From Bacteroidota bacterium (GTDB taxonomy: Bacteria; Bacteroidota; Bacteroidia; Bacteroidales; UBA12077): a DNA stretch of 54,264 nt. The stretch is from the NCBI GenBank assembly GCA_042584405.1, contig JBHOSR010000004.1, positions 1 through 54,264 on the forward strand, written 5' to 3'. Positions 16,348 to 40,400 of the stretch are shown piece by piece. The position numbers and the translations under genes were made by a program. The notes under the pieces are model-generated. The model made no database searches. It was not told the DNA's origin and worked only from the letters and a program-made list of their open reading frames with translations. Position 1 is the stretch's first letter. Each line of letters starts with the position of its first letter.

Positions 16348-16407
16348 TTTCTTTGGTTTTATGGTTTTGGAATATTATCAATTAGCAAGTTACAAAATAT
16401 ATTAATT

Positions 16408-17244
16408 CTAATTATTCGCAAGTACATTAATAAGTTTATCGCAACCACCATTTTTAATAAATTCTGTATGTTCATTTATTGAATTAAAACTTTTCCCACA
16501 TATTTCATGACACTCCATTTTATAATCGGTGACTTCATAGAATCTATTAATTATTTTTTCAGAATCCGGATCAGACATGGTAGTTTTCCATTCACCTTTT
16601 CTAATTAATTTGAGAATGGTTTTCCAAATTGTGGCACCAAGAGCTCCGCATCCACTACCGCCTAAACCAAGGCCTCCTGCAAATCCTGCAACCATAATTA
16701 TTTCTTCTTCGCTCCCTCCCATTTTTTTAAGAACTTCAGAAGCACAACTAATTGCTTTTTGGTCCGTTTCAAACTGTTCAATCGCTAATCCTTCATAAGC
16801 TGCTTTGATTGCTTCAGGAGCCCACTGTTCTGCTAATTTATAACAAGACCAGAATTTACCTGTTAACATATATTTTGCAAAACTCTTTTTGTTTTTAAAA
16901 TCAGTTTTAGTAAAATCTTCACAGTCTATACACTTTGTTCTATTTTCAAAAGAATTCATAATATTCTGAGTTGCCCTTATAGCAACAGCTATTGCTATAC
17001 CTTGATCTTTATGCCTGCGATATGATTCTGCACCAACGGCCATTGATGCTCCCCAAAGCATTCCACATTGATATCCTTGTTGTACTATACCGCCAGCTAA
17101 GGGATCTAAAGCTCGCTCTTCCATTTCTTTTGGATGGCCAAATTCGCGATTTAAAATATAAAAGAAGGTATTTGAGCAAGTACCCTTTTTTAGAAATACT
17201 CTTTTAGCTCTAAGTTTTGTTTTTTTGGTTTTAAATATATTCAT
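16408..17244 (-). CDS. Tandem C-GCAxxG-C-C family putative redox protein
   Basis: Two repeats: TCS...LAGG...QCGMLWGA...DC...SC and SCA...FAGG...GCGALGA...EC...GC. Confidence 0.8.
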   Translation of the reverse strand: MNIFKTKKTKLRAKRVFLKKGTCSNTFFYILNREFGHPKEMEERALDPLAGGIVQQGYQCGMLWGASMAVGAESYRRHKDQGIAIAVAIRATQNIMNSFENRTKCIDCEDFTKTDFKNKKSFAKYMLTGKFWSCYKLAEQWAPEAIKAAYEGLAIEQFETDQKAISCASEVLKKMGGSEEEIIMVAGFAGGLGLGGSGCGALGATIWKTILKLIRKGEWKTTMSDPDSEKIINRFYEVTDYKMECHEICGKSFNSINEHTEFIKNGGCDKLINVLANN

Positions 17245-17285
17245 GGTTATTCTAAATTGCTTTGATTTATGATTAATAATGTTTT

Positions 17286-17906
17286 CTACAACTTCTTAAC
17301 TACTATAAAGCCATTTGGTGTGGGATGACTGGATTTTTGAGTTTCGATAATTTTAAAATTCTCGGAAATCACTAATTTTTCAAATTCATTTGTTTTTAGC
17401 AATTTCAAATGAGGAACAATTCCCACTTTGCTAATAAGGAAAAAGATAAAACGAAACAATGACTTCTCACCTAAAAATGCTGACGAAGAAATAAATAATC
17501 CTCCCGGTTTAAGTAAGTCGTTTATTCTATGAATTTCTATTTTAGGGTCTTCTAATAAATGCATGATATTAAAAGCCGTGATAACATCAAATGATTCATT
17601 TTTAAATTGCTCATCAAATATGCTTGCATGAATAAATTTAATATTTTTAGTATTATGTTCATTCATTCTTTTATGGGCAACATTAATCATCCCTGAGGAA
17701 ATATCTATGGCTTGAATTTCTTCTACATAATCAACCATATTTAATGATGAAGTACCTATTCCACATGCGAAATCTAAAACTTTATCAGTATTGCTGAGAT
17801 ATTTTTTTGTTTTTTCAATGATCTTGATGAATGACTCTTCATCTTTATTGGTTAGCTTTTCAAATCTGATTGATTGTTTATCCCAAAATATTTCTGTTCT
17901 ATTCAT
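17286..17906 (-). CDS. Class I SAM-dependent methyltransferase
   Basis: VLDFACGIG, AIDIS, FDVITAFNIMH, LKPGG. Confidence 0.9.
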   Translation of the reverse strand: MNRTEIFWDKQSIRFEKLTNKDEESFIKIIEKTKKYLSNTDKVLDFACGIGTSSLNMVDYVEEIQAIDISSGMINVAHKRMNEHNTKNIKFIHASIFDEQFKNESFDVITAFNIMHLLEDPKIEIHRINDLLKPGGLFISSSAFLGEKSLFRFIFFLISKVGIVPHLKLLKTNEFEKLVISENFKIIETQKSSHPTPNGFIVVKKL

Positions 17907-17941
17907 TTTCTTCTAATGATGTTTTAAGATATTTAAGATTT

Positions 17942-18172
17942 CTATTTAACAGAGCCTTCTTTGAGTTTAAATGAGAATACTTCATCTAATGGTGATTCAA
18001 AGACAAGTGCAATACGAAAGGCCAATTCAAGCGTTGGTGAATATTTCCCGTTTTCAATGGCTACGATTGTTTGCCTTGTTACTCCAACTTTATCAGCTAA
18101 TTGCTGTTGGGTCATTTCATCATTATTGAAACGAAACTTCCTTATATTATTATCAATGTTACATTTACCCAT
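17942..18172 (-). CDS. XRE/Cro-family HTH transcriptional regulator
   Basis: NNIRKFR...MTQQQLADKVGVTRQTIVAIENGKYSPTLELAFRIA. ATG 18172 follows the upstream stop directly. Confidence 0.92.
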   Translation of the reverse strand: MGKCNIDNNIRKFRFNNDEMTQQQLADKVGVTRQTIVAIENGKYSPTLELAFRIALVFESPLDEVFSFKLKEGSVK

Positions 18173-18173
18173 T

Positions 18174-18632
18174 TTAAACTCCTCTTTTATAAAAGTAAAT
18201 TTGGGCAAATGCTTCAGCTATTGTAGATATAAAACAGGAAGAGATGAGTAAAATAAACATTACCCATATTTCCATTCCAATTAGTATTGAACCCATTGCC
18301 AATAGAAAGATGATAGAATTTACCCATCGTGAAATTTTTAATGCTTTTAGTTCAATTAATTTATCCATTTCGTCTGAAATGGTTGGGATATCTTCATTGG
18401 TAACAATTTTATTAATGATAGCGAAAATAATATGAATAACAATTTGTGTTACAATCATTACAGGAATAAAGATAAAAAAGGTTTTGCCCCAGAATTTAAG
18501 GTCGTTTAAGATTTCAGGATTTCCTGCTACATGTTTATTATAAACATATAGGGCATAGAATCCAAAAATTAGTATAGTACTGATTAAACTTACCAGTATT
18601 CTTGTTTCTTTACGGTACATTTTTCCTTCCAT
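18174..18632 (-). CDS. Four-TM membrane protein (DUF2178-like)
   Basis: Four hydrophobic segments with a central DEMDKLIELKA; usual partner of XRE regulators. Confidence 0.7.
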   Translation of the reverse strand: MEGKMYRKETRILVSLISTILIFGFYALYVYNKHVAGNPEILNDLKFWGKTFFIFIPVMIVTQIVIHIIFAIINKIVTNEDIPTISDEMDKLIELKALKISRWVNSIIFLLAMGSILIGMEIWVMFILLISSCFISTIAEAFAQIYFYKRGV

Positions 18633-18634
18633 AT

Positions 18635-18713
18635 GTCAAAATATTTATACGTGATGTAAAAGTTTATCGATACAAAGTTAAAATTTATATACATAAAGTC
18701 AAAAAATATAGAC
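18635..18713 (-). promoter_or_regulatory. Bacteroidota sigma70 promoter overlaid by four operator boxes at 21-bp period
   Basis: Minus strand TTTG (18703-18700), 19 nt, TAACTTTG (18680-18673). GTNAAA-starting 16-mers at 18635, 18656, 18677 and 18698. Confidence 0.75.
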
Positions 18714-18856
18714 ATTAAATTAAAATATCTTCCTCCTTGCACTGGAAGATGTTGAAATAAAAACAAATAGTCAGTAGATTAGACGAAGCAAGAAAATTTT
18801 ACTATTTAACAACTAAAATTTAAGGAATTAATCAAAAAAGATATAAAAGAGGTATT

Positions 18857-19834
18857 TTACTTATTATATTCACTTCTATAATCAGAGGGTAACCAATCTG
18901 AGATTCGTCTTTCACCCATTGCACCAGTCCACCATATACCTTCAAGACTAAAATTACCTTTTTTATCAAAATAGATAAGTTTTGATATAATTAATTTAGA
19001 TTCAATTTCATGGTAGTAAACTCTTAAGCTACCCTTGTATTTTATGAATTTATTATGGTTTTCATCTTCAATAATAATGTCTTTATATCTAACTCTTTTG
19101 TTTTTAGAATCTACGATTCTGAAATTATTTTCAAATAATTCATTAACCCAAAGAGATCTTAAAAAATGCATTCTTGAACCTCTATAAACATATTCGCGAT
19201 TTTTTTGAACAAGTTCCTGATCGGCTAAAGAATCTTCCTCGAATATGAAATTGCCAGAGAAAAATACATATTTGCTATCTTTATAATATTCAAATACATC
19301 TAAATAGTAAGTAATGTTATATCCCAAAGCTTTGTTCTCTATTATTAAAGGTTTCTTAGTATAAGCTTTTAGAGTGTCTTCGTCTTCGAAGTAATTGAAT
19401 GTAATGTCTTCTTCATTCAAAATCTTGCAATCCCATGAGTTATCTGTTGTACCAAGAAATTCTTCTCGAAATAGTCTTAAATTTGCTCTCCGTTTTCGTA
19501 CTAAAGATTTAGAACTAACTATTGCTTCATTAATATTGTAAATCTTAGGTATTAGTTTTATTGTAAGTTGCTCTCCATCTGAAAAATCTTCAATTGTATT
19601 GGAATAATAACCAATAGCACTTATAGTTATTGGCCGTGAAGCATGTTTTGAAATATCCAATTCAAATTTTCCATTTTGATCCGAACTTGTCCCACAAGAA
19701 GTTCCACTGAAATAAATTGTGGTAGACGGTATTTCTTTCTTGGTTTTCTTATCTATAACCAAACCAGTAATGGTTTGATTAAAAGCTATAAAATGAAAGC
19801 TTAAAAATGAAAGCAATATCATATATTTTGTCAT
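18857..19834 (-). CDS. Carboxypeptidase-regulatory-like domain protein
   Basis: Signal peptide, ITGLVIDKKTK...GTSSDQNGKF...SAIGY, FLG, ENKALGY, YRGSRMHF. Confidence 0.8.
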   Translation of the reverse strand: MTKYMILLSFLSFHFIAFNQTITGLVIDKKTKKEIPSTTIYFSGTSCGTSSDQNGKFELDISKHASRPITISAIGYYSNTIEDFSDGEQLTIKLIPKIYNINEAIVSSKSLVRKRRANLRLFREEFLGTTDNSWDCKILNEEDITFNYFEDEDTLKAYTKKPLIIENKALGYNITYYLDVFEYYKDSKYVFFSGNFIFEEDSLADQELVQKNREYVYRGSRMHFLRSLWVNELFENNFRIVDSKNKRVRYKDIIIEDENHNKFIKYKGSLRVYYHEIESKLIISKLIYFDKKGNFSLEGIWWTGAMGERRISDWLPSDYRSEYNK

Positions 19835-19875
19835 ATAGCTAAATTTAAAGGATTCTGTACGTTTAATTCAAAAGA

Positions 19876-20730
19876 TTATAATTGCTTAATCATTTCGAAT
19901 TGTTTACCAACTAATGGAATTAAAATTGAGTTCAAGAATCTTGCCAATGAATCACACCCGATCTCAGTATTTATAAATTTTATTGACTCATACTGATTTA
20001 ATTTCAATGCTTCTTTAAAAAGTAGACTTCCTATTCCATTTCTTCTATTTCTTTTGTCAACAGCTAATAGAGTAATATCTCCTGATTTTGGTTCAATTAC
20101 ACAATAACCTACTAACTGATTTTCTTTAAATGCACCAATAGCTTTGAAATCAACAGAATTTCTGAATATCGATTCAAAGCTGTTTTGCCATGATGGATTA
20201 AAATCATGAAATTCACCTAAGGAATTAATTTGAGTCAATTCGATTGACTTTATTTGATAGTGTTGGTTTGTATTTTTTTCTTGTAAATGAATGTTTTCAA
20301 TTTTTTGTGAAAAGTAATTAAACTCCCGTGTTACGTTGAAACCTAGTTTTTTATATAAGGAAACTGCTTTGGTGTTATGTTGTAATACTTCCAATAAATA
20401 TTGTTTCACTCCAGCTTCTTTCAAAAAAGGTAAAGAATATTCAAATATTTTTGTTGCAAGCCCTTCTCCACGATACTTTTTTATAGTTCCTGTACCTGTA
20501 TCATACGCGGTTTTAATACCATTAAATTCACCTATCCCATTAAATGTAAATGCAACCATTTTATCTTCATCAAATGCTCCAAAAGATAATTCAGGAACAA
20601 ATCCTCTTCGTGTTAACATTCTTTGGAGTTCATCCTTATTTAGTTGCATTTCGTAATCGACAAATGCTTCCTTAAATGATTCGTATAATAAATCAAAATC
20701 TATATTTTGTAATGATCTTAACTTAAACAT
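19876..20730 (-). CDS. Tandem GNAT acetyltransferase
   Basis: YRGEGLA...LEVLQHNTKAVSLYKKLGF, plus a second domain with RRNGIGS. Confidence 0.88.
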   Translation of the reverse strand: MFKLRSLQNIDFDLLYESFKEAFVDYEMQLNKDELQRMLTRRGFVPELSFGAFDEDKMVAFTFNGIGEFNGIKTAYDTGTGTIKKYRGEGLATKIFEYSLPFLKEAGVKQYLLEVLQHNTKAVSLYKKLGFNVTREFNYFSQKIENIHLQEKNTNQHYQIKSIELTQINSLGEFHDFNPSWQNSFESIFRNSVDFKAIGAFKENQLVGYCVIEPKSGDITLLAVDKRNRRNGIGSLLFKEALKLNQYESIKFINTEIGCDSLARFLNSILIPLVGKQFEMIKQL

Positions 20731-20748
20731 TTTTAATTATTTTTTAAG

Positions 20749-20889
20749 TTATTTATTATTTATGTTTTTCTTGCTATTCTTTGGTATGTGTATTTGTTCA
20801 TAAATTGAACACCACCATATGAAAGCGGCTCCCGCTAATAAGATACCTATGCCAGCAAGAAATTGTCCTAAATTTACTAATATTTCCAT
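20749..20889 (-). CDS. Small single-TM protein, 46 aa (absent from the ORF track)
   Basis: Read by hand: MEILVNLGQFLAGIGILLAGAAFIWWCSIYEQIHIPKNSKKNINNK. Fills the gap between co-oriented genes. Confidence 0.65.
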   Translation of the reverse strand: MEILVNLGQFLAGIGILLAGAAFIWWCSIYEQIHIPKNSKKNINNK

Positions 20890-20923
20890 ATTTCTTATTT
20901 TTTAGTTTGTAAATTTTTATGAT

Positions 20924-22051
20924 TTAATTATTACAAGTAACTAATTTATGAGTTAAGCCTTGTTTACTATTTATTTCATATTTATTTGCTCTATCGGCTT
21001 TTTTTAATCCAAAAACTGGTCTTAAAAAATTCACTCTTCTAATTATAAATTCATATAAGATAAAACATCCTATAAATGTTACAAAAACAGTTAAAACAAA
21101 TTTTAAACTTGTTGAAATATCAAGTAGGAAAATGAAATATGAGGCCAAGTATAAAAATATCATATGGATTATATAGATTGGATATGCTGCCTGACTTAAA
21201 TAACTTAATGCTTTGCTTGGGCGATTTAGGTATTTAAAAGCAAAACCAAATATCGAAAATATCCATACAATGGATTCAATGGCAACTAAATAATTTGGAG
21301 CTTCGAGATTAAAAACAGAAAGTCTTACCGCATAAAATGTGATTGCTATACATAAATACACCCACTTCCATTTTAGTACTGTTTGCCAAAATGCATTTCC
21401 TGTGATAACAAAACTAAAACCAAATAGAAATGCAAGGAATCCTAATACAAATCCATGAAAAGTCATCGCATACATAGTGTACATTTCGGGTTTAATAATT
21501 ATTGCCTCAAGTACAAATAAAACAGCAACTAGTAATAATCCAAGAGGATTGCTATACATGGTTTTCAACCATCTTATAATTTTCCCATTTTCATTTCTTT
21601 TTAAGTAAAAGAAAAATGGAATTAACAGAATAACATAGATAAATATATTTGCTAAGAACCATAAGTGTCCGCGACCAGGAGAATAGATCATTTCCTGGCT
21701 GTAATATTTCTGCCATAGAAATACATGAACTGGAACTATAAAGAATACCCCAAAAAGAAAAGGGATAAGTATTCTTTTGGTTCTTTCTACTATTAATTGT
21801 TTCCAGTTTCTCTTTCGAATAGCAAAACAAACACCCATTCCCGAAACAAAAAATAACAGAGGTATTCTCCATACATTTATCATAGCCATTGGTATCCATA
21901 GCCATTCCAATGCATTGTTACTCTGAATAAATCGGATAAATACTCCCCAGGGTTGAAATCCAATAGCGATATGATAAATTAAAAGTAATCCGATTGCTAT
22001 TACACGTAACCAATCTATATCGTATCTTCTATTTGTTTTAATTGTATTCAC
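20924..22051 (-). CDS. Acyltransferase-3 family membrane protein (OpgC-like)
   Basis: RRYDIDWLRV, YH, WRIPLLFFVSG, HLWFL, YPIYIIH. Start uncertain (GTG 22051 or TTG 22099). Confidence 0.85.
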   Translation of the reverse strand: MNTIKTNRRYDIDWLRVIAIGLLLIYHIAIGFQPWGVFIRFIQSNNALEWLWIPMAMINVWRIPLLFFVSGMGVCFAIRKRNWKQLIVERTKRILIPFLFGVFFIVPVHVFLWQKYYSQEMIYSPGRGHLWFLANIFIYVILLIPFFFYLKRNENGKIIRWLKTMYSNPLGLLLVAVLFVLEAIIIKPEMYTMYAMTFHGFVLGFLAFLFGFSFVITGNAFWQTVLKWKWVYLCIAITFYAVRLSVFNLEAPNYLVAIESIVWIFSIFGFAFKYLNRPSKALSYLSQAAYPIYIIHMIFLYLASYFIFLLDISTSLKFVLTVFVTFIGCFILYEFIIRRVNFLRPVFGLKKADRANKYEINSKQGLTHKLVTCNN

Positions 22052-22100
22052 AATAATAGTTTTTAAATTGATAAATAATAACAATCGAATTCTTAACAAA

Positions 22101-22685
22101 TTATTTTAACATTTCTGCAATAAGCGGACGAGTTGCTTCAATACGATCAAAATCTAGTTTTAAACCTAATGGTCCTAACTGCGTGGCAATTTGTTCATAT
22201 ATGGGTTTTACATTTAGGTATGGACCTGAAACAGATTCCAAAGCTGTTGAACCATAGCTATTTTTTAATGTTTTATCAGCACCTTTTTCTAATAAAGCTT
22301 TTACAATTTCAGTGCGACAAAAGAATGCAGCAGTATGAAGAGGTGTTGATCCTTCGTTATTTTTTATGTTTAAATCTGCTCCACCTTCCATTAAGGCAAT
22401 AGCAACTTCTGTTTTCCCAAATGTTGAAGCAATTGTAAGAGGTGTAGAACCGTATGCATCCTTCACATTTAAATTTGAACCAACCGCAATATGCTGTTTA
22501 ATTGCTTTAAGATCTCCCATAAAAGTAGCCGTATGTATATCCATACTTGGTGCTTTTACCTTTGTTTCTAAAGTTGCATTCTCTTTAACCGAGTTTTGTT
22601 GTGAGTTTCCGCAAGATGCCATAGTTAATGAAATAACTAAAGCCATTGTTACTGTTTTTACTGAATAATTCATTTGTGTTTTCAT
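22101..22685 (-). CDS. Ankyrin-repeat lipoprotein
   Basis: Lipobox MASC; repeats GSTPLTIA, GSTPLHTA, GSTAL. Confidence 0.88.
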   Translation of the reverse strand: MKTQMNYSVKTVTMALVISLTMASCGNSQQNSVKENATLETKVKAPSMDIHTATFMGDLKAIKQHIAVGSNLNVKDAYGSTPLTIASTFGKTEVAIALMEGGADLNIKNNEGSTPLHTAAFFCRTEIVKALLEKGADKTLKNSYGSTALESVSGPYLNVKPIYEQIATQLGPLGLKLDFDRIEATRPLIAEMLK

Positions 22686-22738
22686 CGTTTTTTGTTTTAA
22701 AGTTTAACATCGTTTTGATGATGTAAAGGTCTAACAAA

Positions 22739-22831
22739 CCGTGATGCATGACTTATCAATTATGTAGCCAATAATATTAAGTTTGATGAAGCTGTTGTAA
22801 TTATGATGCAAGAGTATAAATTATGACGCAA
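22739..22831. promoter_or_regulatory. Direct-repeat array, putative AraC-family binding sites
   Basis: AATTATGTAGCC (22758), AAGTTTGATGAA (22779), AATTATGATGCA (22799), AATTATGACGCA (22819), spaced 20-21 bp. Confidence 0.6.
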
Positions 22832-22989
22832 ATGCTTGCTTAAGGATCAAGAAAAGTAGGTGAAATAGAACTATTTGTTATTTAAAGAAATTAGTTTCCT
22901 CCTTACAGGTTGAAAGATGACAATTGTATCTTTATTCATTATTTGTATCTTTAACGAAAGATTAAATTTATCGATTGAAATTTTATACA

Positions 22990-25047
22990 ATGCAAGATTC
23001 CTACTCTATAGAAAATGAGTTTATAAATAAGATTACTGAAATTATAGAGAAGAACATTTCAAACGAAAGGTTTGGAGTGTCTGAACTTGCTGCTGAAATA
23101 GGAATGAGTCGTTCCAATTTGCTTCGGAAGGTTCAAAAACTTACAAAGTTATCGGTTAGCAAATTTATTAGTCAGATTCGATTACAATACGCAATGGAAA
23201 TATTAAAAGAAGGTTCTTGTAATGTTTCAGAAGTTTCGTTTAAAGTTGGTTTTAGTAGCACGTCTTATTTCATTAAATGTTTTCGTGAATATTACGGATA
23301 TCCACCCGGAGAAATTGGTAAACATGATGATAAAACTAAACTTAAACCATTACAGCAAACAAAAGCAATTAGCAGAAAACTTTATTGGGGAATTGGTCTT
23401 TTGGCAATAGTATTATCAATTATATTGTTTTTTGTTACATATCTTGTTTCTTTAAAACCTAAAGTACTTGAAAAATCAATAGCGGTTCTGCCATTTAAAA
23501 ATGACAGCAACGATTCTACCAATGTGTATATCATAAATGGTTTAATGGAATCTATTCTGAATAATCTACAAAAAATTGAAGAATTAAGAGTTTTAAGTAG
23601 AACTTCAGTTGAAAAGTATAGAAATACATCGAAAACAATACCTGAAATTGCTCAAGAGCTGAATGTGAATTATTTTGTTGAAGGCAGTGGGCAAAAAATT
23701 GGAGATCGGATATTATTGAATGTTCAGCTGATTGAAGCTCAAAGTGATAAGCATTTGTGGGCTGAACAGTACGAAAGGGAGACGAAAGATATTTTTCAAT
23801 TGCAAATGGATGTAGCCAGAAATATTGCAGGAAATATCAAAGTAATAATCACCCCGGAAGAGGAAAAAAGAATTAATAAAATTCCTACTGACAATCTGAT
23901 TGCATACGATTATTTTTTAAAAGGACTTGATTTATTTTATAAAGGTGGTACTGAAAATTTATTGGAAGCTATTGAATATTATAAAAAAGCTGTTGAGCTG
24001 GACAGTGAATTTGCACGAGCATATGCCGGTATCGCTATTGCCTATTACTTTTTAGACGTATTTCAAACAGAAAAACTATATACAGAACAAATAACAAACT
24101 TTGCTGATAAGGCCTTATTATTGGATCCTCAGCTTGCTCAAAGTTTAATTGCAAAGGCATTATCATACATGATTAGTGGGGAAAATGAATTAGCAGTTCC
24201 TTATCTCGAAAAAGCCTTAGAATACAATCCGAATTCGGCTGTTGTTATTAATATTTTATCTGATTTTTACACAAGTAACATTCCTAATACTGAAAAATAT
24301 CTCGAATATGCTCTCAAGGGCATTCAATTAGATATCGCAGCACATGATTCTGTTACTGCAAGTTTTATATACTTACATGTGAGTAATGCTTTGATTCAAT
24401 CGGGGTTTATTGAAGAAGCTGAAACGTATATTAACAAATCGCTCGTGTATAATCCTCAAAATATATATTCTGACTATGTAAGGGCTTATATACTTTATGC
24501 TAAAAATAAAGATCTAAAACAAAGTGAAAAATTATTGGTCAAGACTTTGGAAAAGGATACGACCCGATTAGATGTGTTGCAGGAAGTAGGTAAAATTTAT
24601 TATTACCAGAGAGACTATGAAAGTGCTTATACATATTATAAAAAATTTATAGATGTTAAAAAAGCACTGAGTCTTGATATATATCCTTCAGAAAATTCGA
24701 AAATTGGAGTTGTATTAGCGGAAGTTGGATTAATAGATGAATCTGAGAAATTATTTAATGAATATAGATACTATGCTGAAAATGATCAATCTATATACAG
24801 GAATTTAAGCTTATCAATGTATTATTCCTATATAGGTGATTCGTTAAAAGCTATTGAGCATTTGAAATTATTTTCTGAAGAAGACAATTATTTTTATTGG
24901 TTAATTCTATTTTTAGAAATAGATCCATTAATTGATAAAATGAAAGATGATCCGGAATATAAAAAAATACTTCAAGATATAGAGACCAAATTCTGGAATT
25001 ACCATAAGAAGGTTAAGGCTTCATTGGAAGACAAAGAATTACTATAA
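22990..25047 (+). CDS. Membrane-spanning regulator: N-terminal AraC HTH, single TM, TolB-like domain, TPR repeats
   Basis: GMSRSNLLRK...VGFSSTSYFIKCFREYYGYPP; TM; KSIAVLPFKN...RVLSRTS...VEGS; AYDYFLKG; TPR motifs. ATG 22990. Confidence 0.88.
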   Translation: MQDSYSIENEFINKITEIIEKNISNERFGVSELAAEIGMSRSNLLRKVQKLTKLSVSKFISQIRLQYAMEILKEGSCNVSEVSFKVGFSSTSYFIKCFREYYGYPPGEIGKHDDKTKLKPLQQTKAISRKLYWGIGLLAIVLSIILFFVTYLVSLKPKVLEKSIAVLPFKNDSNDSTNVYIINGLMESILNNLQKIEELRVLSRTSVEKYRNTSKTIPEIAQELNVNYFVEGSGQKIGDRILLNVQLIEAQSDKHLWAEQYERETKDIFQLQMDVARNIAGNIKVIITPEEEKRINKIPTDNLIAYDYFLKGLDLFYKGGTENLLEAIEYYKKAVELDSEFARAYAGIAIAYYFLDVFQTEKLYTEQITNFADKALLLDPQLAQSLIAKALSYMISGENELAVPYLEKALEYNPNSAVVINILSDFYTSNIPNTEKYLEYALKGIQLDIAAHDSVTASFIYLHVSNALIQSGFIEEAETYINKSLVYNPQNIYSDYVRAYILYAKNKDLKQSEKLLVKTLEKDTTRLDVLQEVGKIYYYQRDYESAYTYYKKFIDVKKALSLDIYPSENSKIGVVLAEVGLIDESEKLFNEYRYYAENDQSIYRNLSLSMYYSYIGDSLKAIEHLKLFSEEDNYFYWLILFLEIDPLIDKMKDDPEYKKILQDIETKFWNYHKKVKASLEDKELL

Positions 25048-25072
25048 CACTTATGTAAACTTATAATTTTGT

Positions 25073-28000
25073 TTATATCTTAAATCCTAAGATTATGATA
25101 TCATCGACTTGCGGCTCCTCTCCTTTCCAGTCTTCCAGAGTATCATTAAGTATTTCTAATTGTTCTTGAGCCGATTTATTTGAAATTTCCAGAAGTAGGT
25201 TGTTTAGATTTTTCGGTAAAAATTTCTTTTTGTTTTCACCACCAAACTGATCTTGAAACCCATCGGAATATAAATATAAGGAGTCACCTTTATGGATCTC
25301 TATAATATTATTTGTAAATGATTTCTTTTCTTTTATAAATATACCAATGGGCATTTTATCACCACTATGTTTAATTATTTCATTGTTTCTAATTAAGATT
25401 AAAGGATTATAAGCCCCTGCAAAATGAATGGTTTGATCTTTTCGGTTTAACACACAAAGTGAAATATCCATTCCATCTTTTGCTTCATTGTCTTTACCTG
25501 TTTGTCTTAGTGCGCTTTTAATTTCTTCGCGTAATAGAGTTAAAATGTCGCCAGCTGTAAAAGAATCTGGTATTTGGCTCATAATTTGATCAAGTAAAGA
25601 AATACCCAAAATACTCATAAATGCACCCGGAACTCCATGTCCTGTGCAATCAGCTGCAGCAACGACTATATTTCCGTTTTTAGCATTTAAATAATAAAAA
25701 TCGCCACTTACAATATCTCTTGGCCTAAAAAATATGAAGTGCTCACCCAGATATTTTACAAAATTTTCCTTGGGTGGTAACACAGCTCTTTGTATACGAC
25801 TTGCATATTCAATGCTCGCAGTAATATTTTTGTTTTGTAATTCAATTTTATCGCGTTGTTCCGTTACATAATTTCGTTGAGCTTCAATTTCATCTCTTTG
25901 TGCTTCAATTTCTTCTTTTTGTTGCATTATTTCAGCGGTACGTTTTCTAACTTCTTCTTCTAGAATTTCTTTATCACGCTTTAACTTTTTTAATTTCGCC
26001 TTAATATAGGCGAATATTATTATTAGAATCAAAATAATTGATGCTGATATAAACCAAATGGTTTCCCAAAAAGGTTTCTTTATGCGAAATGAGAATTTGG
26101 AATCAGGACTATCAATCCATTTTCCTCCCGAATAATTTACCTGTACTACAAATTTATATTCACCTGGAGGTATATTAGAATATGTTACCATACGAAGGTT
26201 AGTTGCAGGATTCCAATCCATTTCAAAACCATTCAGTTTATAGCGATATTTTAAGTCTTCAGATGACTTGAACCAAAGCGCAGTATAGTTAAAAGTCAGA
26301 TAATTATCGTTGTATTTAAGAGTTGTATTTTCGCCTAGAATAGTTTCTGAAAAGAGTCTTTTTTGAGTAATAAAAATTTTGGGTAATATTTCAAGTGAAT
26401 CGTTGCTGTCTGCATTTAATTTAACTATTCCAGATGCACTACCAATCCAAATATTATCGTCTTTATCCTTATAAACAGCGTTTAAATTAGGTTCTAAATA
26501 GGCAACTCCTGCTGATTCACCAGTATATTCAAAAGAACTATCTTTAATGATGAATTTATCAATACCCTCATTACTAATAATTACTGGATTACCCATTAAA
26601 TCTGTTGTTATTCCTTGAATAATATTGCTTTTTAATCCATTTTCTTCATTAAAATTTTGAAAGGTATTTCCGTCATACTTATATAATCCGTGGTTTGCGC
26701 AGTTATACCAGATGTTATTATTACAATCTTCTATTACCGCATAAACTGTTTTTTTAACAGAATCAAGTTTGGGATTTGAAGACTTGTGAATACTATCATT
26801 TTTAAAATATACAACACCTCCCCCGTCTGTTGCAATCCAGGTTCTGTCTTTTGAATCGGTAAAAGTAGAATAAACATAATCTGATGTTAAACCGTCGGCT
26901 GTTGTATAATTTCTGAACTCATCGGTATTACTAACACAATATTTTGTTACACCGCCTCCAAGTGTCGATAACCATATATTTTCCTTATTACCAGATATAT
27001 GAATAATATTATCGTTCGATAAACCATTTTCTGAGTTGTAATTTGTAATTTCAAGCGTAATAGGATTAATTTTAAAAACTCCGTATCCATATGTTCCAGC
27101 CCAAATATTACCCAAATCATCTTTGTATAGCGATATAAAAGAATATGAATTATCAGGATCGTAAAATAGAAGTTTCTGGTTAATCTCTCCTATTTTGTCC
27201 TTATTAACGATGTATAATCCTTCTTGTGATGCAACCCAATAGTTTCCTAAGTCGTCAATAACAAAGCTAAAAATGTCTTTAATTGTAAATCCATCATTCT
27301 CGTTAAGAAATTCAATATTGTTATTCTTTCTTAAAGACAATCCATTGCGTGTTCCTATCCATATATTATTTTCACGATCTTTGAAAATAGATTTGGTTCT
27401 GGTATCGGTTAAATCGTTATTTTTTCCATATACCGTATACCAAACATGATCATTCTTATCGTAATTTACTTTAATAATTCCTTTTCGTTTTGTGCTAATC
27501 CATAATTCTTTATCAGAAATACAAATGAAATTATTTATAGATCCAAATTCCCAATCTAAGGTTTGTGAAAATTCTTTATTAATTAAATTGTATTTACTAA
27601 TTCCACCATCTTCCATCGCAATCCACAAATCTGATTTATTAATAATCATATGCTTCACAATATTGTCTGGTAATCCGTCCGACATGGTTATTTCATCAAT
27701 AAATTCTTTACGATTGGGATTATATACAGAAATGCCTTTATCCGTTGAGAAATAAAGTAAAGAATCATGCTGAATTATATCATAAACATAATTGTCTAGA
27801 AGGCCATTCTCAGTACTTAAATTATAAAGTCTTTTGCGGTTTTGACCTTTATAATAATAAACACCTTCTCCGAAGGTAGAAAACCATAGTACATTCATTT
27901 TATCGATAAAAAATGAAGAAATTACTTCAGCTGGCAAACCTTCTTCCGGATCGAATTTTGTGAATTCGAATCCATTATATGACGTGATTTTTCCAGTTTT

Positions 28001-28291
28001 GTGACCTATCCATAAAATACTATTAGAATCTTCTCCAATTGTTGAAATATTAATATCGTAGAGACCATCTTTCTCTGTAAACAAATGGAAATCTACTCCG
28101 TCGTATTTAACTAAACCATAATTGGTACCTAACCAAATATATCCTTTATGATCCTGAAAAATTGCTGAGACTTCAACACTTTTTTTATTCTTTAAAACTT
28201 TATAAGAATCAAATCTTGGACTTTGAGCATGTAATCCAATAAATATTAAGAATAATATTAAAGTTAATATAAGATGTATTCGATGCTTCAT
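25073..28291 (-). CDS. Sensor phosphatase: beta-propeller/Y_Y_Y periplasmic region, TM, coiled coil, SpoIIE/PP2C domain
   Basis: Repeated D..G.IW.GT motifs, YRYKLNG...YSNIPPGEY, IVSGDFY, ADCTGHGVPGA, DGMD, SDGFQDQFGG, QVDDI. Confidence 0.92.
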   Translation of the reverse strand: MKHRIHLILTLILFLIFIGLHAQSPRFDSYKVLKNKKSVEVSAIFQDHKGYIWLGTNYGLVKYDGVDFHLFTEKDGLYDINISTIGEDSNSILWIGHKTGKITSYNGFEFTKFDPEEGLPAEVISSFFIDKMNVLWFSTFGEGVYYYKGQNRKRLYNLSTENGLLDNYVYDIIQHDSLLYFSTDKGISVYNPNRKEFIDEITMSDGLPDNIVKHMIINKSDLWIAMEDGGISKYNLINKEFSQTLDWEFGSINNFICISDKELWISTKRKGIIKVNYDKNDHVWYTVYGKNNDLTDTRTKSIFKDRENNIWIGTRNGLSLRKNNNIEFLNENDGFTIKDIFSFVIDDLGNYWVASQEGLYIVNKDKIGEINQKLLFYDPDNSYSFISLYKDDLGNIWAGTYGYGVFKINPITLEITNYNSENGLSNDNIIHISGNKENIWLSTLGGGVTKYCVSNTDEFRNYTTADGLTSDYVYSTFTDSKDRTWIATDGGGVVYFKNDSIHKSSNPKLDSVKKTVYAVIEDCNNNIWYNCANHGLYKYDGNTFQNFNEENGLKSNIIQGITTDLMGNPVIISNEGIDKFIIKDSSFEYTGESAGVAYLEPNLNAVYKDKDDNIWIGSASGIVKLNADSNDSLEILPKIFITQKRLFSETILGENTTLKYNDNYLTFNYTALWFKSSEDLKYRYKLNGFEMDWNPATNLRMVTYSNIPPGEYKFVVQVNYSGGKWIDSPDSKFSFRIKKPFWETIWFISASIILILIIIFAYIKAKLKKLKRDKEILEEEVRKRTAEIMQQKEEIEAQRDEIEAQRNYVTEQRDKIELQNKNITASIEYASRIQRAVLPPKENFVKYLGEHFIFFRPRDIVSGDFYYLNAKNGNIVVAAADCTGHGVPGAFMSILGISLLDQIMSQIPDSFTAGDILTLLREEIKSALRQTGKDNEAKDGMDISLCVLNRKDQTIHFAGAYNPLILIRNNEIIKHSGDKMPIGIFIKEKKSFTNNIIEIHKGDSLYLYSDGFQDQFGGENKKKFLPKNLNNLLLEISNKSAQEQLEILNDTLEDWKGEEPQVDDIIILGFKI

Positions 28292-28836
28292 TATTTTTTG
28301 GGAACTAATTCAAGATCAACATTTATAATAATCTCTTCTGCAATTTTTTGGCTAACAACTGTTGGTATCTTTATATTATGATCTTCGAGTAAAACGGTAA
28401 ACTCTGAACTTACCGAGATTTTGTTTTGAGCAATAATTATTTTGCATTTTAAAATTCTTTCTTGTTTAACTCCATGACATGTAAAACTCCCTTTCGCTCT
28501 TACATTGTATGTGCCAGGTGTTTTAAAATCTATTTCTTCAATAATTTTGCCTTCGAAAATAGTATTTGGATATTTGGCTGATTCCAAGTAATTTTCATTA
28601 AAATGTGTTTTTTGAAGAGAACTATTAAATCCTTCGAAACTTTTCATTGGAACACGGAAAGCAAACGATCTATCAGAAATTTTCAGAATTCCTATTAACT
28701 CATCTGAAGCCGCTTCAATTAATTCAAGCGGGGCATCTGATGTAAATTCAATTTCACTTTCTGATAGTATAAATAAATCTTGTGCAAATAAACTTGAAAC
28801 AAATAATAAAAGAATTACTGTGAATGTTGCTTTCAT
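28291..28836 (-). CDS. YceI family protein
   Basis: Signal peptide, IEFTSDAPLE, HFNENYLES.KYP, G.FTCHGV, DHNIKIP. ATG 28836; TAATG overlap with the next gene. Confidence 0.88.
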   Translation of the reverse strand: MKATFTVILLLFVSSLFAQDLFILSESEIEFTSDAPLELIEAASDELIGILKISDRSFAFRVPMKSFEGFNSSLQKTHFNENYLESAKYPNTIFEGKIIEEIDFKTPGTYNVRAKGSFTCHGVKQERILKCKIIIAQNKISVSSEFTVLLEDHNIKIPTVVSQKIAEEIIINVDLELVPKK

Positions 28837-28846
28837 AACTATATTT

Positions 28847-29722
28847 CTATTTAAAACTAAATAATCGAATGATATTAAATCCAATTCCTACGTCACCATT
28901 TATCCATTCTCCCATTGTTTCTGTTATAAATGCTTTTTCTGTCATTCCATTTGAATTGGTTGCATGTATTTGAAAAACGTGTCCACCAGTTTCTATTTCA
29001 ATACCTATGGCGAGTGAATTATTGTACTTATCGGCTGTATTTCCAGGGATAAGATAATAATATTCACCAACAGCAGTAAATCTATTAGTTATTTTGTATC
29101 TGCCTCCTATACCTACAGCTCCAACAGTATTTTGATCTTCACGAGTTTCAACCATATTTCGGTGAATAATTACCGGAGATAATTGTAATGATAATTTTTC
29201 GGTAAATTTTCGGGCTATAAATAATTCATGAATATAGTAAAAACGTCCTGTGAGTGGATAATCAACTTCATCATTTGTCCACTCTTGTGTTCTAACTGAT
29301 ATTCCTTCGAGCCAGGTTATTGTTACCGGAAAACTTTTCTTCCCTGAAGATTGTTGTGTTAATTTAACTTTTATAAAACCATCAATAATGTCTTCAAAGT
29401 TACTTCGCCCGATACCAAGATCTATGCGGTCGTTTAAACCATATTCAAAACCAAATCTTATGGTTGATTGATCAAGACCGTAAAAATCTTTTATACCTCC
29501 GTTTATGTTACCAAATCGATGTGAAATTGAAAATATTAGCTCTTTTTTCGCTGCTGTTTCACTGGTATAACCATTAATTAGTCGAACACTTTTAAAGGTT
29601 CCTTCAACGTACTGATTCTTGTCTGTTTCTGGTTGTATAGAATCGAGCATTGAAAGTAAATCCTGACCATATCCATTCAGTTGGATACATAAAATGCAAA
29701 TAAGGAAATAAAGTTTTTTCAT
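28847..29722 (-). CDS. Outer-membrane beta-barrel, DUF5777-like
   Basis: QDLLSML, TFKSVRLING, ISHRFG, FYGLD, IETGGHVFQIH.TN, terminal GFNIIRLF. Confidence 0.82.
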   Translation of the reverse strand: MKKLYFLICILCIQLNGYGQDLLSMLDSIQPETDKNQYVEGTFKSVRLINGYTSETAAKKELIFSISHRFGNINGGIKDFYGLDQSTIRFGFEYGLNDRIDLGIGRSNFEDIIDGFIKVKLTQQSSGKKSFPVTITWLEGISVRTQEWTNDEVDYPLTGRFYYIHELFIARKFTEKLSLQLSPVIIHRNMVETREDQNTVGAVGIGGRYKITNRFTAVGEYYYLIPGNTADKYNNSLAIGIEIETGGHVFQIHATNSNGMTEKAFITETMGEWINGDVGIGFNIIRLFSFK

Positions 29723-29728
29723 AGCAAA

Positions 29729-30106
29729 CTAATTTTCAGGCATTCCAGCATTTATCCATGCTTCAATTTTTTCAATATCACAATCGGATAATTTTGGTCG
29801 CTCGAAAGGCATTTTATATTGACCTTCATGTTTTATTGCAGGTAAAACACGATCTGTGTTTATTGAGATTCTAACATTCTCAATCGTATTCATTTTAATA
29901 TCTCTATAGAATAAGGTCTCATTATGACAATCAGCACAATTATCTGAAAAAATATATGTTAAATCATTATATACTATTCCTACTGTATCACATTGGAAAT
30001 CTTTAAGTAGATCTTCTTCATTATCGTAAGTACATGACGAAAAGTAATTTATTATAAATGTTAAAATCAGTACTTTACCTACCAAAATGTATTTTAAGAC
30101 TTTCAT
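29729..30106 (-). CDS. Monoheme cytochrome c lipoprotein
   Basis: Lipobox FSSC then TYDNEED; CADCH heme motif; KMP distal Met; WINAG. Confidence 0.85.
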   Translation of the reverse strand: MKVLKYILVGKVLILTFIINYFSSCTYDNEEDLLKDFQCDTVGIVYNDLTYIFSDNCADCHNETLFYRDIKMNTIENVRISINTDRVLPAIKHEGQYKMPFERPKLSDCDIEKIEAWINAGMPEN

Positions 30107-30170
30107 AATGAATAAATGATTTTACATAAAAATACTCAATTTAAATATAAATAACCATTATTGGATTATA

Positions 30171-30791
30171 TCAGTTTTTTATAATCCTGGAAGTATAGCT
30201 AGTATTGTCAACAAATAACTGAATAATATAAATCCCTGAAACCAGCTCTGAACAATCAACAACTAATTGCTTGTTTTTTAAGTTCCCATTCATAACAATT
30301 TTTGATTTGCCGGTAATATCAAATATTGCTAATTCAAATTCTGGATTTGAATAACTTATATTCTCAATAGTAAGCTGGTTTGTATTTAAAGGATTTGGGA
30401 AAACTTTAAAGTCTTTGAAGGATTTTAGATCATTTACATTTGTTGCGGTAGATACGATGATCCTCCCTTTCATGCCACTAGATATGTGATTTTCACAAAT
30501 ATAATAATAGGTTCCTTCTGCATTTAGCATTTTATCTCCACTACCGGAAGGAAAAGTAAAACCCCCAGCTAATGGTGTATTCCCGTTTGAATTCCATGTG
30601 CTCATACTAACTTCTAAAACCGGGTGACTTGAACCAACATCAAAAGAAACAATATCACCTACAGAAATTGTAATAGTTGGCGGAGAAAAAGAAAAACCGC
30701 TAGCATTTATTGTGTGAGTAGTTTGTGTTAATGCACTTAAATGAAAAACAAATACAACTATCGAAGTTAATAAATATCGTTTCATGGCCAT
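30171..30791 (-). CDS. Cupredoxin (plastocyanin-like) domain with T9SS type A sorting domain
   Basis: Signal peptide, FSPPTITISVGDIV, H(PV), GTYYYICENHISSGMKG (type-1 Cu ligands); CTD VFPNP...IFDITGK...GIYII. Confidence 0.88.
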   Translation of the reverse strand: MAMKRYLLTSIVVFVFHLSALTQTTHTINASGFSFSPPTITISVGDIVSFDVGSSHPVLEVSMSTWNSNGNTPLAGGFTFPSGSGDKMLNAEGTYYYICENHISSGMKGRIIVSTATNVNDLKSFKDFKVFPNPLNTNQLTIENISYSNPEFELAIFDITGKSKIVMNGNLKNKQLVVDCSELVSGIYIIQLFVDNTSYTSRIIKN

Positions 30792-30864
30792 AAATTTTAA
30801 TTCAATATAGAAACATATGGCTGTTTTATATTGTTCATTTCCAATTTAAGTAAATAAAAAGTTG

Positions 30865-37494: not shown

Positions 37495-40400
37495 ATGAAA
37501 AAATCTACCCTAGTATCCAAGTGGATATTTTTTGTTTTAGTATTAAACCTAATTTTTAGTATTAATGTTTTTTCTCAATTAATTAGTGGTACTCATTATA
37601 TTGGCCCAGGTCAGGAGTACGAAACTATTAACGAAGCTGTTGATAGCTTAGAATCTATAGGGGTTGACGGACCAACCATAATGAAAATTAAATCCGGCAC
37701 TTATAATGAGCAAGTAAAGATTCTTAGTATTTCTGGTACATCACCTACTAATACCGTAACATTTGAATCTGAAGCTCAACATGTTGATAGCGTGTCAGTT
37801 TTTTGGAACGCAAGTACGGAATCAGGATACAATTATGTATTCTTCTTCGGAAATTGTGATTATGTTACTGTTCAGTACATGAAGATATCAAATACTAGTG
37901 CAGCTGCATTTAATCGAGTATTCTTCTTAAATGGTGATGATTGTTTTGGAAATAAAATAAAATACAATCAATTAATAGGAAAGTCTACAACAAGTAGTAG
38001 TAATGAATATGCTGTAATTTATATGTATACAGATTATATTGATGAAACAGAAATTATTGGTAATGATATAGTAGACGGCAGTTACCCTGTTTATTTATAT
38101 GGGAATACAAAAATATCGAACGATGTTAAAGTAAATTACAACAAAACAAATTCCTATTATGGAATGTATCTTTGGAAGCAAAATAATATTGAAGTTATAG
38201 GAAACGAAATAAACTCAAGTTATGGTAATGGAATAGAGCTTAGGGAGTGTCATACTTCAGCAAGCGGTGCTATAACTGTATTAAATAATAAGGTGTCAGC
38301 ATATCATGCCTCAGCACATGCCGGGATATACTTGAATAATTCTGATGGATCTGGTGCCTTTAGTGGTTTAATTGCAAATAATGTTGTTTTTGTAACTAAT
38401 AATGATGATGCCGATGCAAATACGGGCATAAATTTAACCAGCTCAGACTATCATGATGTTTTTCATAATACAGTTTATTTAAAGAATTCAAACTCTACTG
38501 GATGTGCTTTTTATGCAAATGGAGGTGGTAATATTGTTGTAAAAAATAATTTATTTGCTGTACGCTACCATGGATACGCTTTGAACAGCAATAATGGAAC
38601 GAATATCACAGCCAGTGATTACAATAATTTCTATACTTCAGGAAATTATTTAGCATATTGGGGAGGTGCTGTAAAAGAATTAGCTGATCTGCAAGGAGTC
38701 GGATATGATGCCAGTTCTAAAGCCTGGTATCCAAGCTTCTTATCAATCGACAATATAAGTGGTTTAATTCCACAAACGCACTGGATAGACGATATGGGTG
38801 ATGATCTTACTGGCACTATTGATTATGACATTGATAGTGTTGCAAGACCTACTTCTCCATCTGTTGGTGCATACCAGTATACTGCTTCGAATACCACAAC
38901 TTATTCAGGTCCTTTAACCATTCAGGCAGCAGCAGGAACATTTACTTCATTTTCTGAAGCAGCTGATTCTTTAAATAAGTTGGGTGTATCAGGTGCAGTA
39001 ACTATTAGTGTTGAGACTAATACATATAATGAGAATTTTTTCTTAATTGATATTCCTGGGGTAAGTGCTGCAAATACGATTACATTCCAATCCGCTACGG
39101 GTGATTCAACAGATGTTACTGTAGAATACTCATCTCCATCAAGTACAGATAATTATGTTGTTTACTTAAATGGAACCGATTATATTACCTTTAAAGAAAT
39201 GTCTTTCAGAAATACCGGAGCAACATATGCTCGGATATTCAGAATGAATGGTCTGGCACATGATATCACAATTACAAATAATGTATTCATCGGAAGTGGA
39301 AATGCAGCTTCATCAACCGATAGAGCAATTATTTCTAGTACAAACGATAATCTAGATAATTTAACCATTACAAATAATTCATTTACGGATGGTGACAGAG
39401 GTGTAAATTTATCCGGAATATCAGAAGCGGATAGGACATCAGGATTATTAATATCAAACAACCAATTTTCAGGGCATAGAACAAATATAGGTGTTAGTAA
39501 TCAGACAGATTTCGAGATATCAGATAACTTATGTGAAGATTTTACTTATGGAGGAATTACTACAACTAATTGCAGCTCTCCTTATAAAATTCATAGCAAT
39601 CAAGTATATTCTGATGTCAATCTCGATAATTATGCTAATGCTATAAGCACATATAATAATGTAGGTAGTGGTGATGGGGGATTAATATATAATAACTTTG
39701 TATATATTGAAGATAATGATGATATGAGAGGTATACGATTATATTCATCAGGTAACCAAAGTGTTTATAATAATTCTGTTAATGTAGTAAGTTCTAATGC
39801 GAATTCTAAAGCTTTCTTTTATGACTGGAGTGCTAGCCATTCAAATAATATAATAAAGAACAATAATTTTGTAGTAAAGGGTTCAGGTTATCCTATGTAT
39901 TTGGAAAACCCAGACCTTGCCGTTTCTGAATGTGATTATAATAATTATTATACTTCGGGATCATATCTTGTACATTGGGATGGAACAAATTATGGCAATT
40001 TAACATCATTAAATGGTGCTACAGGAGAAGATGCCAATTCTGTTAATTATTATCATGGCTATTTTTCAGATACAGATTTACATACTAATTCACCATGGTT
40101 AGATAGCGCAGGTGTTGCACTGGCTGGATTGGTTGATGTTGATATTGACGGAGACGTAAGGGATGCAACCTATCCTGATATTGGAGCTGATGAATATTCA
40201 TCTACAGTTAAACCTTATGCCGGTGAATATACCATTGGTGCAACCGGTGATTTCTTAACTTTTAATGAAGCACTTGATTCGTTAATTGAAAGAGGTGTTA
40301 ATGATACGGTAATATTTAAAGTACAAACTGGGACTTATACAGAAAATCTGGCAATTCCGTTCATTTCTGGTATTTCAAGTACTTCGCCTATCATATTTGA

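Follow-up and report, generated by a model that had tools for sequence, protein, structure and literature searches.

A DUF5777 outer-membrane barrel with apparently interchangeable one-electron carriers, joined to a YceI-sensor pair at a Bacteroidota locus

The window analyzed here, a 54,264-nucleotide stretch of a Bacteroidota genome (assembly GCA_042584405.1, contig JBHOSR010000004.1, positions 1 to 54,264), carries five co-oriented open reading frames (ORFs) on its minus strand. In order of transcription, they encode a plastocyanin-like type-1 copper protein (30791-30171, 206 aa), a monohaem class I cytochrome c lipoprotein (30106-29729, 125 aa), an outer-membrane beta-barrel of the DUF5777 family (29722-28847, 291 aa), a YceI lipid/polyisoprenoid-binding protein (28836-28291, 181 aa counted from its ATG) and an inner-membrane sensor with a PP2C phosphatase output (28291-25073, 1072 aa). 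The intergenic gaps measure 64, 6 and 10 nt, and at the fourth junction the sensor start overlaps the YceI stop (TAATG), so that the gene arrangement reported in an earlier first-pass annotation of this DNA is confirmed by the ORF coordinates, as are its domain calls for all five genes by Pfam and NCBIfam. Comparison with other genomes shows that the locus consists of two modules, a barrel with a one-electron carrier and a YceI protein with a sensor, plus an accessory cupredoxin, and is not a fixed five-part machine. The system is real and, in the literature searched, undescribed, and its mechanism is one that we infer.

Within the genus, a DUF5777 match is present in 13 of 24 genomes, and 20 of the 27 DUF5777 matches of the relatives survey were taken for comparison. 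The order barrel-YceI-sensor is preserved in all six same-genus loci with the same barrel type, and the arrangement is therefore not due to chance; all five genes are visible in four of these loci, the other two ending at contig edges. In one other genome (G004, locus L035:2737-5958), the sensor gene is broken into two ORFs, through either a frameshift or an assembly error.

Of 301 genomes sampled across the phylum Bacteroidota, 127 have a DUF5777 match. The neighborhood survey was based on 103 barrel domains in 100 loci (60 genera, 18 families), taken from the 147 listed matches outside the source genome (the listing excludes 19 more) after extra genomes of heavily sampled genera had been dropped, and neighbors were counted by six-frame search on the same strand within 3 kb. 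The cytochrome adjoins 80 of the 103 barrels, YceI 73, an OB-fold protein 29, a Rieske protein seven, a cupredoxin six, an EB_dh-family protein six and a Bcp peroxiredoxin five. A carrier of any kind (monohaem cytochrome, Rieske protein or cupredoxin) stands beside 90 barrels. None of the seven Rieske loci, which belong to four families, has the cytochrome, and three of the six cupredoxin loci likewise lack it; the Rieske-cytochrome exclusion would arise by chance with a probability of about 0.002 if the four genera are treated as independent, which kin are not fully. Since the Rieske loci are all devoid of the cytochrome, the carrier slot looks swappable, and the best argument for a redox role is that three unrelated one-electron folds occupy it. 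The envelope redox role put forward in the first-pass annotation is supported for the core of barrel plus carrier and is not supported as a single conduit of five parts with one component per envelope layer, as none of 101 barrels in the phylum draw has the complete five-gene set. Within three places of the barrel, 126 of 701 genes code for carriers, as against 6 of 646 genes that lie five places away or farther, in counts made circular by profiles derived from these loci. This concentration, together with the matching clades of YceI and sensor proteins and the pairing of both by the module in several families described below, argues against the idea that loosely related envelope genes were gathered by rearrangement in this genus without a shared pathway. 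That idea draws on the lack of positional conservation of the cupredoxin and the PP2C output, and we consider it scarcely probable.

The barrel (28847-29722, minus strand) matches PF19089 (DUF5777) over its full length (301 bits against a cut-off of 23.1, model positions 1-247, E = 6e-90) and no other Pfam family; its earlier description as "DUF5777-like" thus named the right barrel and was too weak for a full member of the family. Its AlphaFold2 model comprises 12 strands and an N-terminal segment reminiscent of plugged channels, with a predicted local distance difference test score (pLDDT) of 94.9 and a predicted template modeling score (pTM) of 0.88. The nearest folds are those of KdgM (Z 18.4, root-mean-square deviation (rmsd) 2.0, 167 residues aligned) and FapF (Z 17.6, rmsd 3.7, 211 aligned), followed by NanC; the COG4313 protein Pput2725 matches model residues 30-268, including the N-terminal segment (Z 16.9, rmsd 4.4, 216 aligned, 9% identity), and LpxR (Z 15.6) and OMPLA (Z 12.1) score lower, with broadly concordant results from Foldseek. 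Among PDB sequences, the sole hit of the barrel profile was a designed barrel (E 0.14), with no natural barrel at E 10, and the ESM Atlas matches of the barrel were to DUF5777 clusters only.

The Pput2725 match lends some weight to a reading in which DUF5777 forms a plugged channel that takes up a hydrophobic molecule, akin to COG4313/SphA, with YceI carrying the molecule across the periplasm, the cytochrome accepting electrons as it is oxidized or detoxified and the YceI-sensor pair detecting it. Besides this match and the frequency of YceI beside the barrels, the reading can invoke the lateral release through a conserved patch of the barrel wall that has been proposed for COG4313 (accessible text of PMC4493636) and the Pseudomonas regulon that unites the SphA barrel, the SphB lipoprotein cytochrome c and the SphC oxidase (accessible text of PMC11398299). 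The scores of KdgM, FapF and NanC, however, lie within about 1.5 Z of that of COG4313, so that the fold does not single out COG4313; no oxidoreductase family recurs among the neighbor clusters, the conserved patch of DUF5777 is assigned to the lipid face and not to the lumen, most of the cytochromes carry a stretch resembling an export signal, and one accessory is secreted by the type IX secretion system (T9SS). An uptake channel is accordingly possible, and we regard it as doubtful.

The conserved patch carries two histidines, His48 and His228 in mature numbering (His68, codon 29519-29521, and His248, codon 28979-28981), each of which is present in 118 of 119 barrels. Judging from the hydrophobic alternation of the strands, both share the parity of the lipid-facing residues F50, F230 and F262, with R266 on the same side, and would therefore face lipid on the outer wall of the barrel. 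The lipid face of strands 11-12-1 is also the most conserved lipid-facing stretch, with an entropy of 0.98 versus a mean of 1.84 and none of 5000 shuffles as low. Natural fusions offer a view of how such faces might meet, since 16 of the 19 long DUF5777 homologues are tandem barrels of about 600 aa (P0003-P0018, L078:7000-8650), some of them from Panacibacter; the other three (P0019-P0021) join a barrel to a C-terminal domain without an assigned family. The GH.FQ motif occurs twice in all 16 tandems and the HRFG motif, by strict pattern, twice in 12 of them, and both histidine columns are invariant in both halves of the tandem alignment. The AlphaFold2 model of one natural tandem has a pTM of 0.78, a value obtained without a control, despite a disordered linker (pLDDT < 50), which suggests a defined packing of barrel against barrel; together with the natural two-barrel fusions themselves, the model suggests that the barrels may form dimers.

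A patch of this kind could also belong to an enzyme. In OMPLA, PagL and LpxR, a lipid-facing catalytic histidine acts with conserved Ser/Thr and Asn/Asp partners. On this analogy, the barrel would be a lipid-acting outer-membrane enzyme that, with YceI and the carriers, repairs or removes oxidized envelope lipids in the manner of BcnA-LcoA. The LpxR and OMPLA fold matches agree with it, as do the conserved lipid-facing His/Arg/Phe patch with a likely dimer, the Bcp peroxiredoxin beside five of the 103 barrels (all but one of them without a carrier) and the protection against lipid peroxidation by YceI and cytochrome b561 described in the accessible text of PMC9113575. Nevertheless, no Ser, Asn or Asp is found among the barrel columns conserved at 90%, leaving both histidines without a near-invariant neighbor of these three kinds, a hydrolase would have no need for the interchangeable one-electron carrier seen at 90 of the 103 loci, and no cytochrome b561 is encoded at the locus. 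An enzyme of this type appears unlikely.

The cytochrome (29729-30106, minus strand) presents a weak, sub-threshold Pfam match to cytochrome c, a CADCH haem motif with an MP further downstream, and a lipoprotein signal with Cys25 as lipid anchor followed by TYDNEED. A profile of 83 homologues matches class I cytochromes in the PDB, with FoxE as the best hit, and an axial Met is present in 71 of the 83, from which His/Met ligation of the haem is predicted. Two spare cysteines, Cys39 and Cys109, have no counterpart in 49 homologues, occur as two in 28, as one in a single homologue and as three or four in five. As they come as a pair or not at all, they point to an optional disulfide, which is likely to form between Cys39 and Cys109, and a role as metal ligands was rejected on the same grounds. 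An acidic stretch follows the lipidated Cys in 61 of the 83 homologues, a count for which no periplasmic control set was compared. The accessible text of PMC5080379 defines the lipoprotein export signal (LES) for surface display in Bacteroidota, and comparison was made with a polar or Lys residue followed by acidic residues at +2 to +6; C-TYDNEED is polar and then acidic, yet identical to no published LES consensus string. This resemblance suggests that the cytochrome may be exposed at the cell surface. Among the single-motif proteins of a set of 112, the haem motif reads CX4CH in 35 and CX2CH in 56. Dihaem proteins with CX4CH+CX2CH also occur in the cytochrome cluster L031-L150, as do a single CX3CH and a single CX6CH.

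The copper protein (30171-30791, minus strand) combines Copper-bind and Por_Secre_tail domains and retains the complete type-1 ligand set H56, C99, H102 and M107, of which C99, H102 and M107 align with plastocyanin. Its C-terminal domain (CTD) scores above the cut-offs of both PF18962 and TIGR04183, and with a SprA gene in the genome it qualifies as T9SS type A cargo. A reverse survey found a cupredoxin-CTD match in 78 of 401 genomes of the class; each of the 29 top-ranking loci has the copper motif and only one of them a module gene within 1.5 kb, and the cupredoxin is therefore an optional accessory. A cupredoxin-CTD gene is also the neighbor of the barrel in another family of the order and in two genera of a further family (L039, L069, L076). 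Upstream of the gene, a GAACAA-N16-GTT element (30812-30836, minus strand) is kept, with a variable spacer, in the window and in all four same-genus loci having the region, and occurs at five genes of the source genome, where shuffles give 1.0. For the looser GAAC-N18-GTT, this genome shows no enrichment (15 versus 11.5 in shuffles); it is not general either, being present at 10 of 121 barrel loci. The longer element is a candidate alternative-sigma promoter or operator. The 64-nt gap holds an AT-rich element (30127-30143, minus strand), aligned in the window and five same-genus loci without a chance control, which may represent an internal promoter for the four downstream genes. A scan for sigma-70 promoters and terminators remained at chance level (40 sites versus 46.9 in shuffles).

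The sensor (25073-28291, minus strand) has a periplasmic propeller/Y_Y_Y input (Reg_prop and Y_Y_Y), a single transmembrane (TM) helix near residue 745 and a SpoIIE-type output in which the motifs GDFY, ADCTGHG, DGMD, SDG and DDI are all intact, as in members of the PPM/PP2C family with their metal-binding Asp motifs. In three of four tests against the sensors of the source genome, its propeller domain was the reciprocal best match of kinase-output sensors at barrel loci. The input domain recurs beside the module in seven of the 100 phylum loci, where the output is always a LytS-type kinase with LytTR. A reverse survey gave matches in 123 of 401 genomes, of which the best 40 rows, leaving out the source genome and G041, were examined. 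YceI lies directly upstream in 17 of these rows, including the first ten, with gaps of -4 to 31 nt; seven of the 17 pairs have the module cytochrome and four the barrel in the DNA fetched, and the input domain is linked to the module in seven of the 40 loci. The four YceI-sensor pairs with PP2C output outside the genus have neither barrel nor cytochrome in the DNA fetched.

The association of YceI and sensor is also apparent in their phylogenies. In a quick tree comprising 118 YceI proteins, a branch with a support of 98 (Shimodaira-Hasegawa-like approximate likelihood ratio test, SH-aLRT) has every one of the 30 that adjoin a sensor, that of the window among them, on the same side, and these share clade-specific residues in the alignment. 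A FastTree phylogeny of 57 sensors contains a clade of 30 rows with YceI upstream in 28; of the other two rows, one gained its YceI in a six-frame search and one begins at the edge of a contig. In kinase-type relatives, two YceI proteins are often encoded, one sensor-type and one barrel-type, and the YceI-sensor pair adjoins the module in several families with differing gene orders. The YceI of the window (28291-28836, minus strand) is, by sequence, the clade partner of the sensor and not a barrel-type YceI; its clade was seen only immediately upstream of one propeller-sensor clade, and the two clades occur as a pair whichever output domain is used. The window hence represents a [cupredoxin]-cytochrome-barrel group joined to a YceI-sensor pair; what the locus adds is the PP2C-output form and evidence for YceI as the dedicated partner of the sensor. 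In the source genome, eight SiaC genes and three DUF6272 genes, the latter presumably SiaB-like, lie outside the operon on other contigs, and their products are likely targets of the PP2C domain. A sister clade of propeller-PP2C sensors without YceI (L161-L189) is mostly preceded by an ORF of 410-470 aa, which suggests that it has other dedicated partners. Next to the sensor gene, a convergent gene for a regulator with AraC helix-turn-helix (HTH), TM and TPR regions (window 22975-25047) lies 25 nt away, and a 3049 aa ORF with a T9SS-CTD-like tail (37495-46644) is followed by a second propeller-PP2C sensor (46720-49974).

The literal model of the first-pass annotation, an obligate trans-envelope conduit with one part per layer, the cytochrome acting through the barrel lumen and the whole wired to the PP2C domain, can be weighed against these surveys. 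Tight packing, the five genes in four of six same-genus loci, the cupredoxin-CTD beside the barrel in other taxa and the recurrence of the sensor input domain by the module in both surveys speak for it. The annotation had itself held that a cupredoxin and a phosphatase not conserved next to the core would count against it, and this was found for the cupredoxin, with one module-linked homologue in 29, and for the PP2C output, replaced by a kinase in seven of seven phylum loci, though not for the sensor input domain; a link of the sensor to YceI is supported. The possible internal promoter would set the cupredoxin gene apart. The 12 predicted strands, compared with 16 in Cyc2 and 26 in MtrB (accessible text of PMC8406198), make a cytochrome inside the DUF5777 lumen unlikely. 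The obligate unit is largely refuted, since its parts are not conserved together, and we deem it very improbable.

The source genome (63.65% complete) encodes ccsA and SprA, so that haem attachment and T9SS export are available, as well as a bd oxidase and a haem-copper oxidase beside a cluster resembling alternative complex III (ACIII). In the region C1:9438-22602, the latter two are accompanied by genes that we take, from their sequence, to be SCO-like and haem synthase-like. Two paralogous DUF5777 loci are present. At C2:52590-55269 (L002 region), a LamG-domain lipoprotein is followed by a barrel, a barrel-type YceI and an OB-fold protein, as is also the case in four same-genus loci. The C18 locus (14796-29972, L003 region) starts with ccsA, a Crp/Fnr-like regulator, a hexahaem lipoprotein, a monohaem c lipoprotein and the barrel, continues with 19-haem, 7-haem, cytochrome b561-family and 4-haem genes, and ends in what are presumably HmuY-like and TonB-receptor-like genes; relatives have NrfC/NrfD genes after the barrel instead. 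C18 is a candidate multihaem envelope conduit. Cytochrome b561 was found only in multihaem-type paralogous loci (5).

Further genes recur near barrels in the phylum. NrfC and NrfD genes occur at 11 and 10 barrel loci, respectively; like the EB_dh-family and Bcp neighbors counted above, they encode redox proteins, in keeping with a redox role of the barrel. EB_dh-family lipoproteins (L114, L117, L121, L129, L133, L135, L032) are encoded upstream of the cytochrome and the barrel, in many cases close to NrfC/NrfD, and in L118, L121 and L123 a YceI-domain lipoprotein takes their place. Sigma-70 region 2/4 genes, similar to extracytoplasmic function (ECF) factors, were seen at 21 barrel loci (e.g. 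L063, L066, L081, L084, L091, L111, L115, L120, L122, L131, L141), and a recurrent 440 aa partner at 14. Cytochrome c maturation does not separate genomes with DUF5777 from those without, as 297 of the 301 have it.

The reading that we tentatively favor, with confidence a little short of even, is an outer-membrane electron relay with a haem or quinone on the outer wall of the barrel, monitored by the YceI-sensor pair. Barrels would dimerize through the lipid face of strands 11-12-1 and hold a haem b, ligated by both histidines, or a quinone within the membrane; with the cofactor site on the lipid face, electrons would bypass the narrow lumen. An isoprenoid quinol bound to YceI, possibly the barrel-type YceI encoded at the C2 locus, would feed this site from the periplasm, and the surface-exposed His/Met cytochrome, here also the T9SS cupredoxin, would accept the electron outside, the copper protein being predicted to act as an optional extracellular add-on. 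Menaquinol has a low potential, and His/Met cytochromes c, type-1 copper and Rieske centers have high ones. Electron flow would, on these potentials, be outward. The sensor-type YceI might offer this lipid, or display its redox state, to the propeller domain; a SiaC-type protein encoded elsewhere might be the substrate that the PP2C domain dephosphorylates. Precedents for quinone-binding YceI proteins acting with cytochromes appear in the accessible texts of PMC9113575 and PMC8981238. The barrel-haem protein unit would likely pass single electrons through the outer membrane via the two histidines predicted for the outer wall, and YceI and the membrane sensor likely report on this transfer. In a bolder version, which we consider possible but rather doubtful, DUF5777 would be the beta-barrel equivalent of cytochrome b: two barrels would clamp haem between lipid-facing histidines inside the outer membrane and connect a pool of quinol carried by YceI with exchangeable carriers at the surface (cytochrome c, Rieske, blue copper), and a duplicated YceI would be the dedicated subunit that presents the ligand in a sensor family monitoring the envelope redox pool via phosphatase or kinase. 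Such a dimer would be a novel type of electron path across the outer membrane, found in roughly four of every ten genomes sampled from the Bacteroidota.

Several observations weigh against an electron relay. The barrel folds nearest to DUF5777 are solute channels and lipid enzymes, none of them redox proteins. The orientation of the histidines rests on alternation in the alignment and not on model coordinates, and their mutual distance could range from 12 to 28 Å with register. For eleven of the 103 barrels, neither strand has a carrier gene close by, and among carrier-less barrels only a single one (L132) lacks both histidines, ten others keeping them; at the C2 paralogue, the LamG-domain lipoprotein occupies the carrier slot and there is no electron carrier. 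Neighbor profiles were built from the same loci in which neighbors were then counted, and only these families were counted. In the reverse survey, ten of the 17 pairs of YceI and sensor lack the module cytochrome within the fetched DNA. Finally, fusion searches yielded no barrel-cytochrome or YceI-sensor fusion, which is weak evidence.

If true, the relay would provide a function for the DUF5777 family and would, given the number of genomes with a match, be widespread. The YceI-sensor pair offers a testable handle on the in vivo cargo of bacterial YceI proteins and on the non-sugar signals of Bacteroidota propeller sensors. No literature was found that names DUF5777, or that treats YceI with a LytTR histidine kinase in Bacteroidota, in a search that left out most subscription papers and all supplements, and none on a bis-His haem b barrel of this kind, as judged by titles and the start of abstracts. 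In the accessible text of PMC5429918, an iron-induced YceI gene is described and no link to a cytochrome/lipoprotein operon is shown.

Among known systems, BcnA-LcoA also ties a YceI protein genetically to a redox protein, and a quinone-bound YceI has been proposed there as an envelope redox carrier (accessible text of PMC9113575); its partner, however, is an inner-membrane b561, whereas here an outer-membrane barrel and a lipoprotein c are found with a YceI that is a sensor-dedicated paralogue. With no b561 among the five genes, membership was rejected. Cbp2D/Cbp2E of Cellvibrio japonicus similarly combine a YceI-like domain, which binds quinone, with monohaem c domains, one of which reduces copper enzymes in vitro (PMC8981238, accessible text), but are secreted multidomain proteins with carbohydrate-binding modules (CBM) and without barrel or sensor. 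The COG4313 proteins Pput2725/SphA/TcpY (PDB 4rl8) resemble the barrel, as predicted, in their 12 strands, N-terminal segment and length of 270-320 aa (accessible text of PMC4493636), and SphB of the SphA/SphBC regulon resembles the module cytochrome as a lipoprotein cytochrome c (PMC11398299, accessible text). They differ from it in the 9% identity, the absence of a linked SphC-like oxidase here and the histidine pair, which the accessible texts on COG4313 do not describe; the barrel, with DUF5777 as its only Pfam family, is not a member of the COG4313/SphA sequence family. The sensor shares with SiaA-type PP2C proteins and Bacteroidota propeller/Y_Y_Y sensors its PP2C match to SiaA, its input domain and the SiaC/DUF6272 genes in the genome. 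Unlike SiaA, it reaches only 184.8 bits on NF038263 (cut-off 700), over the C-terminal part only, has no siaBCD partners in the operon, comes with a dedicated YceI and has relatives in which PP2C is swapped for a LytS-type kinase with LytTR; it is thus no SiaA equivalog.

The putative extracellular electron transfer cluster of Bacteroidetes_1, with six cytochromes and one barrel, resembles the paralogous C18 locus in gene content and not the arrangement in the window, the family of its barrel being unnamed in the accessible text of PMC8258643. Porin-cytochrome complexes are defined by four other porin families (PMC7399161, accessible text). In Cyc2, MtrAB, PioAB and MtoAB, too, a barrel of the outer membrane goes together with a c-type cytochrome, and that of Cyc2 is monohaem like the one here (PMC8406198, accessible text). 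Membership in MtrAB/PioAB fails on 12 strands instead of about 26 and a neighbor with one CxxCH instead of a decahaem protein, and membership in Cyc2 on separate genes, 12 strands and no fusion among the 19 long homologues. The present module differs from all four in its 12 predicted strands, separate cytochrome lipoprotein, Rieske and cupredoxin substitutes, YceI partner and lipid-face conservation. Known electron routes through the outer membrane place the haem inside a wide barrel; a cofactor on the outer wall of DUF5777, if true, would be a different solution.

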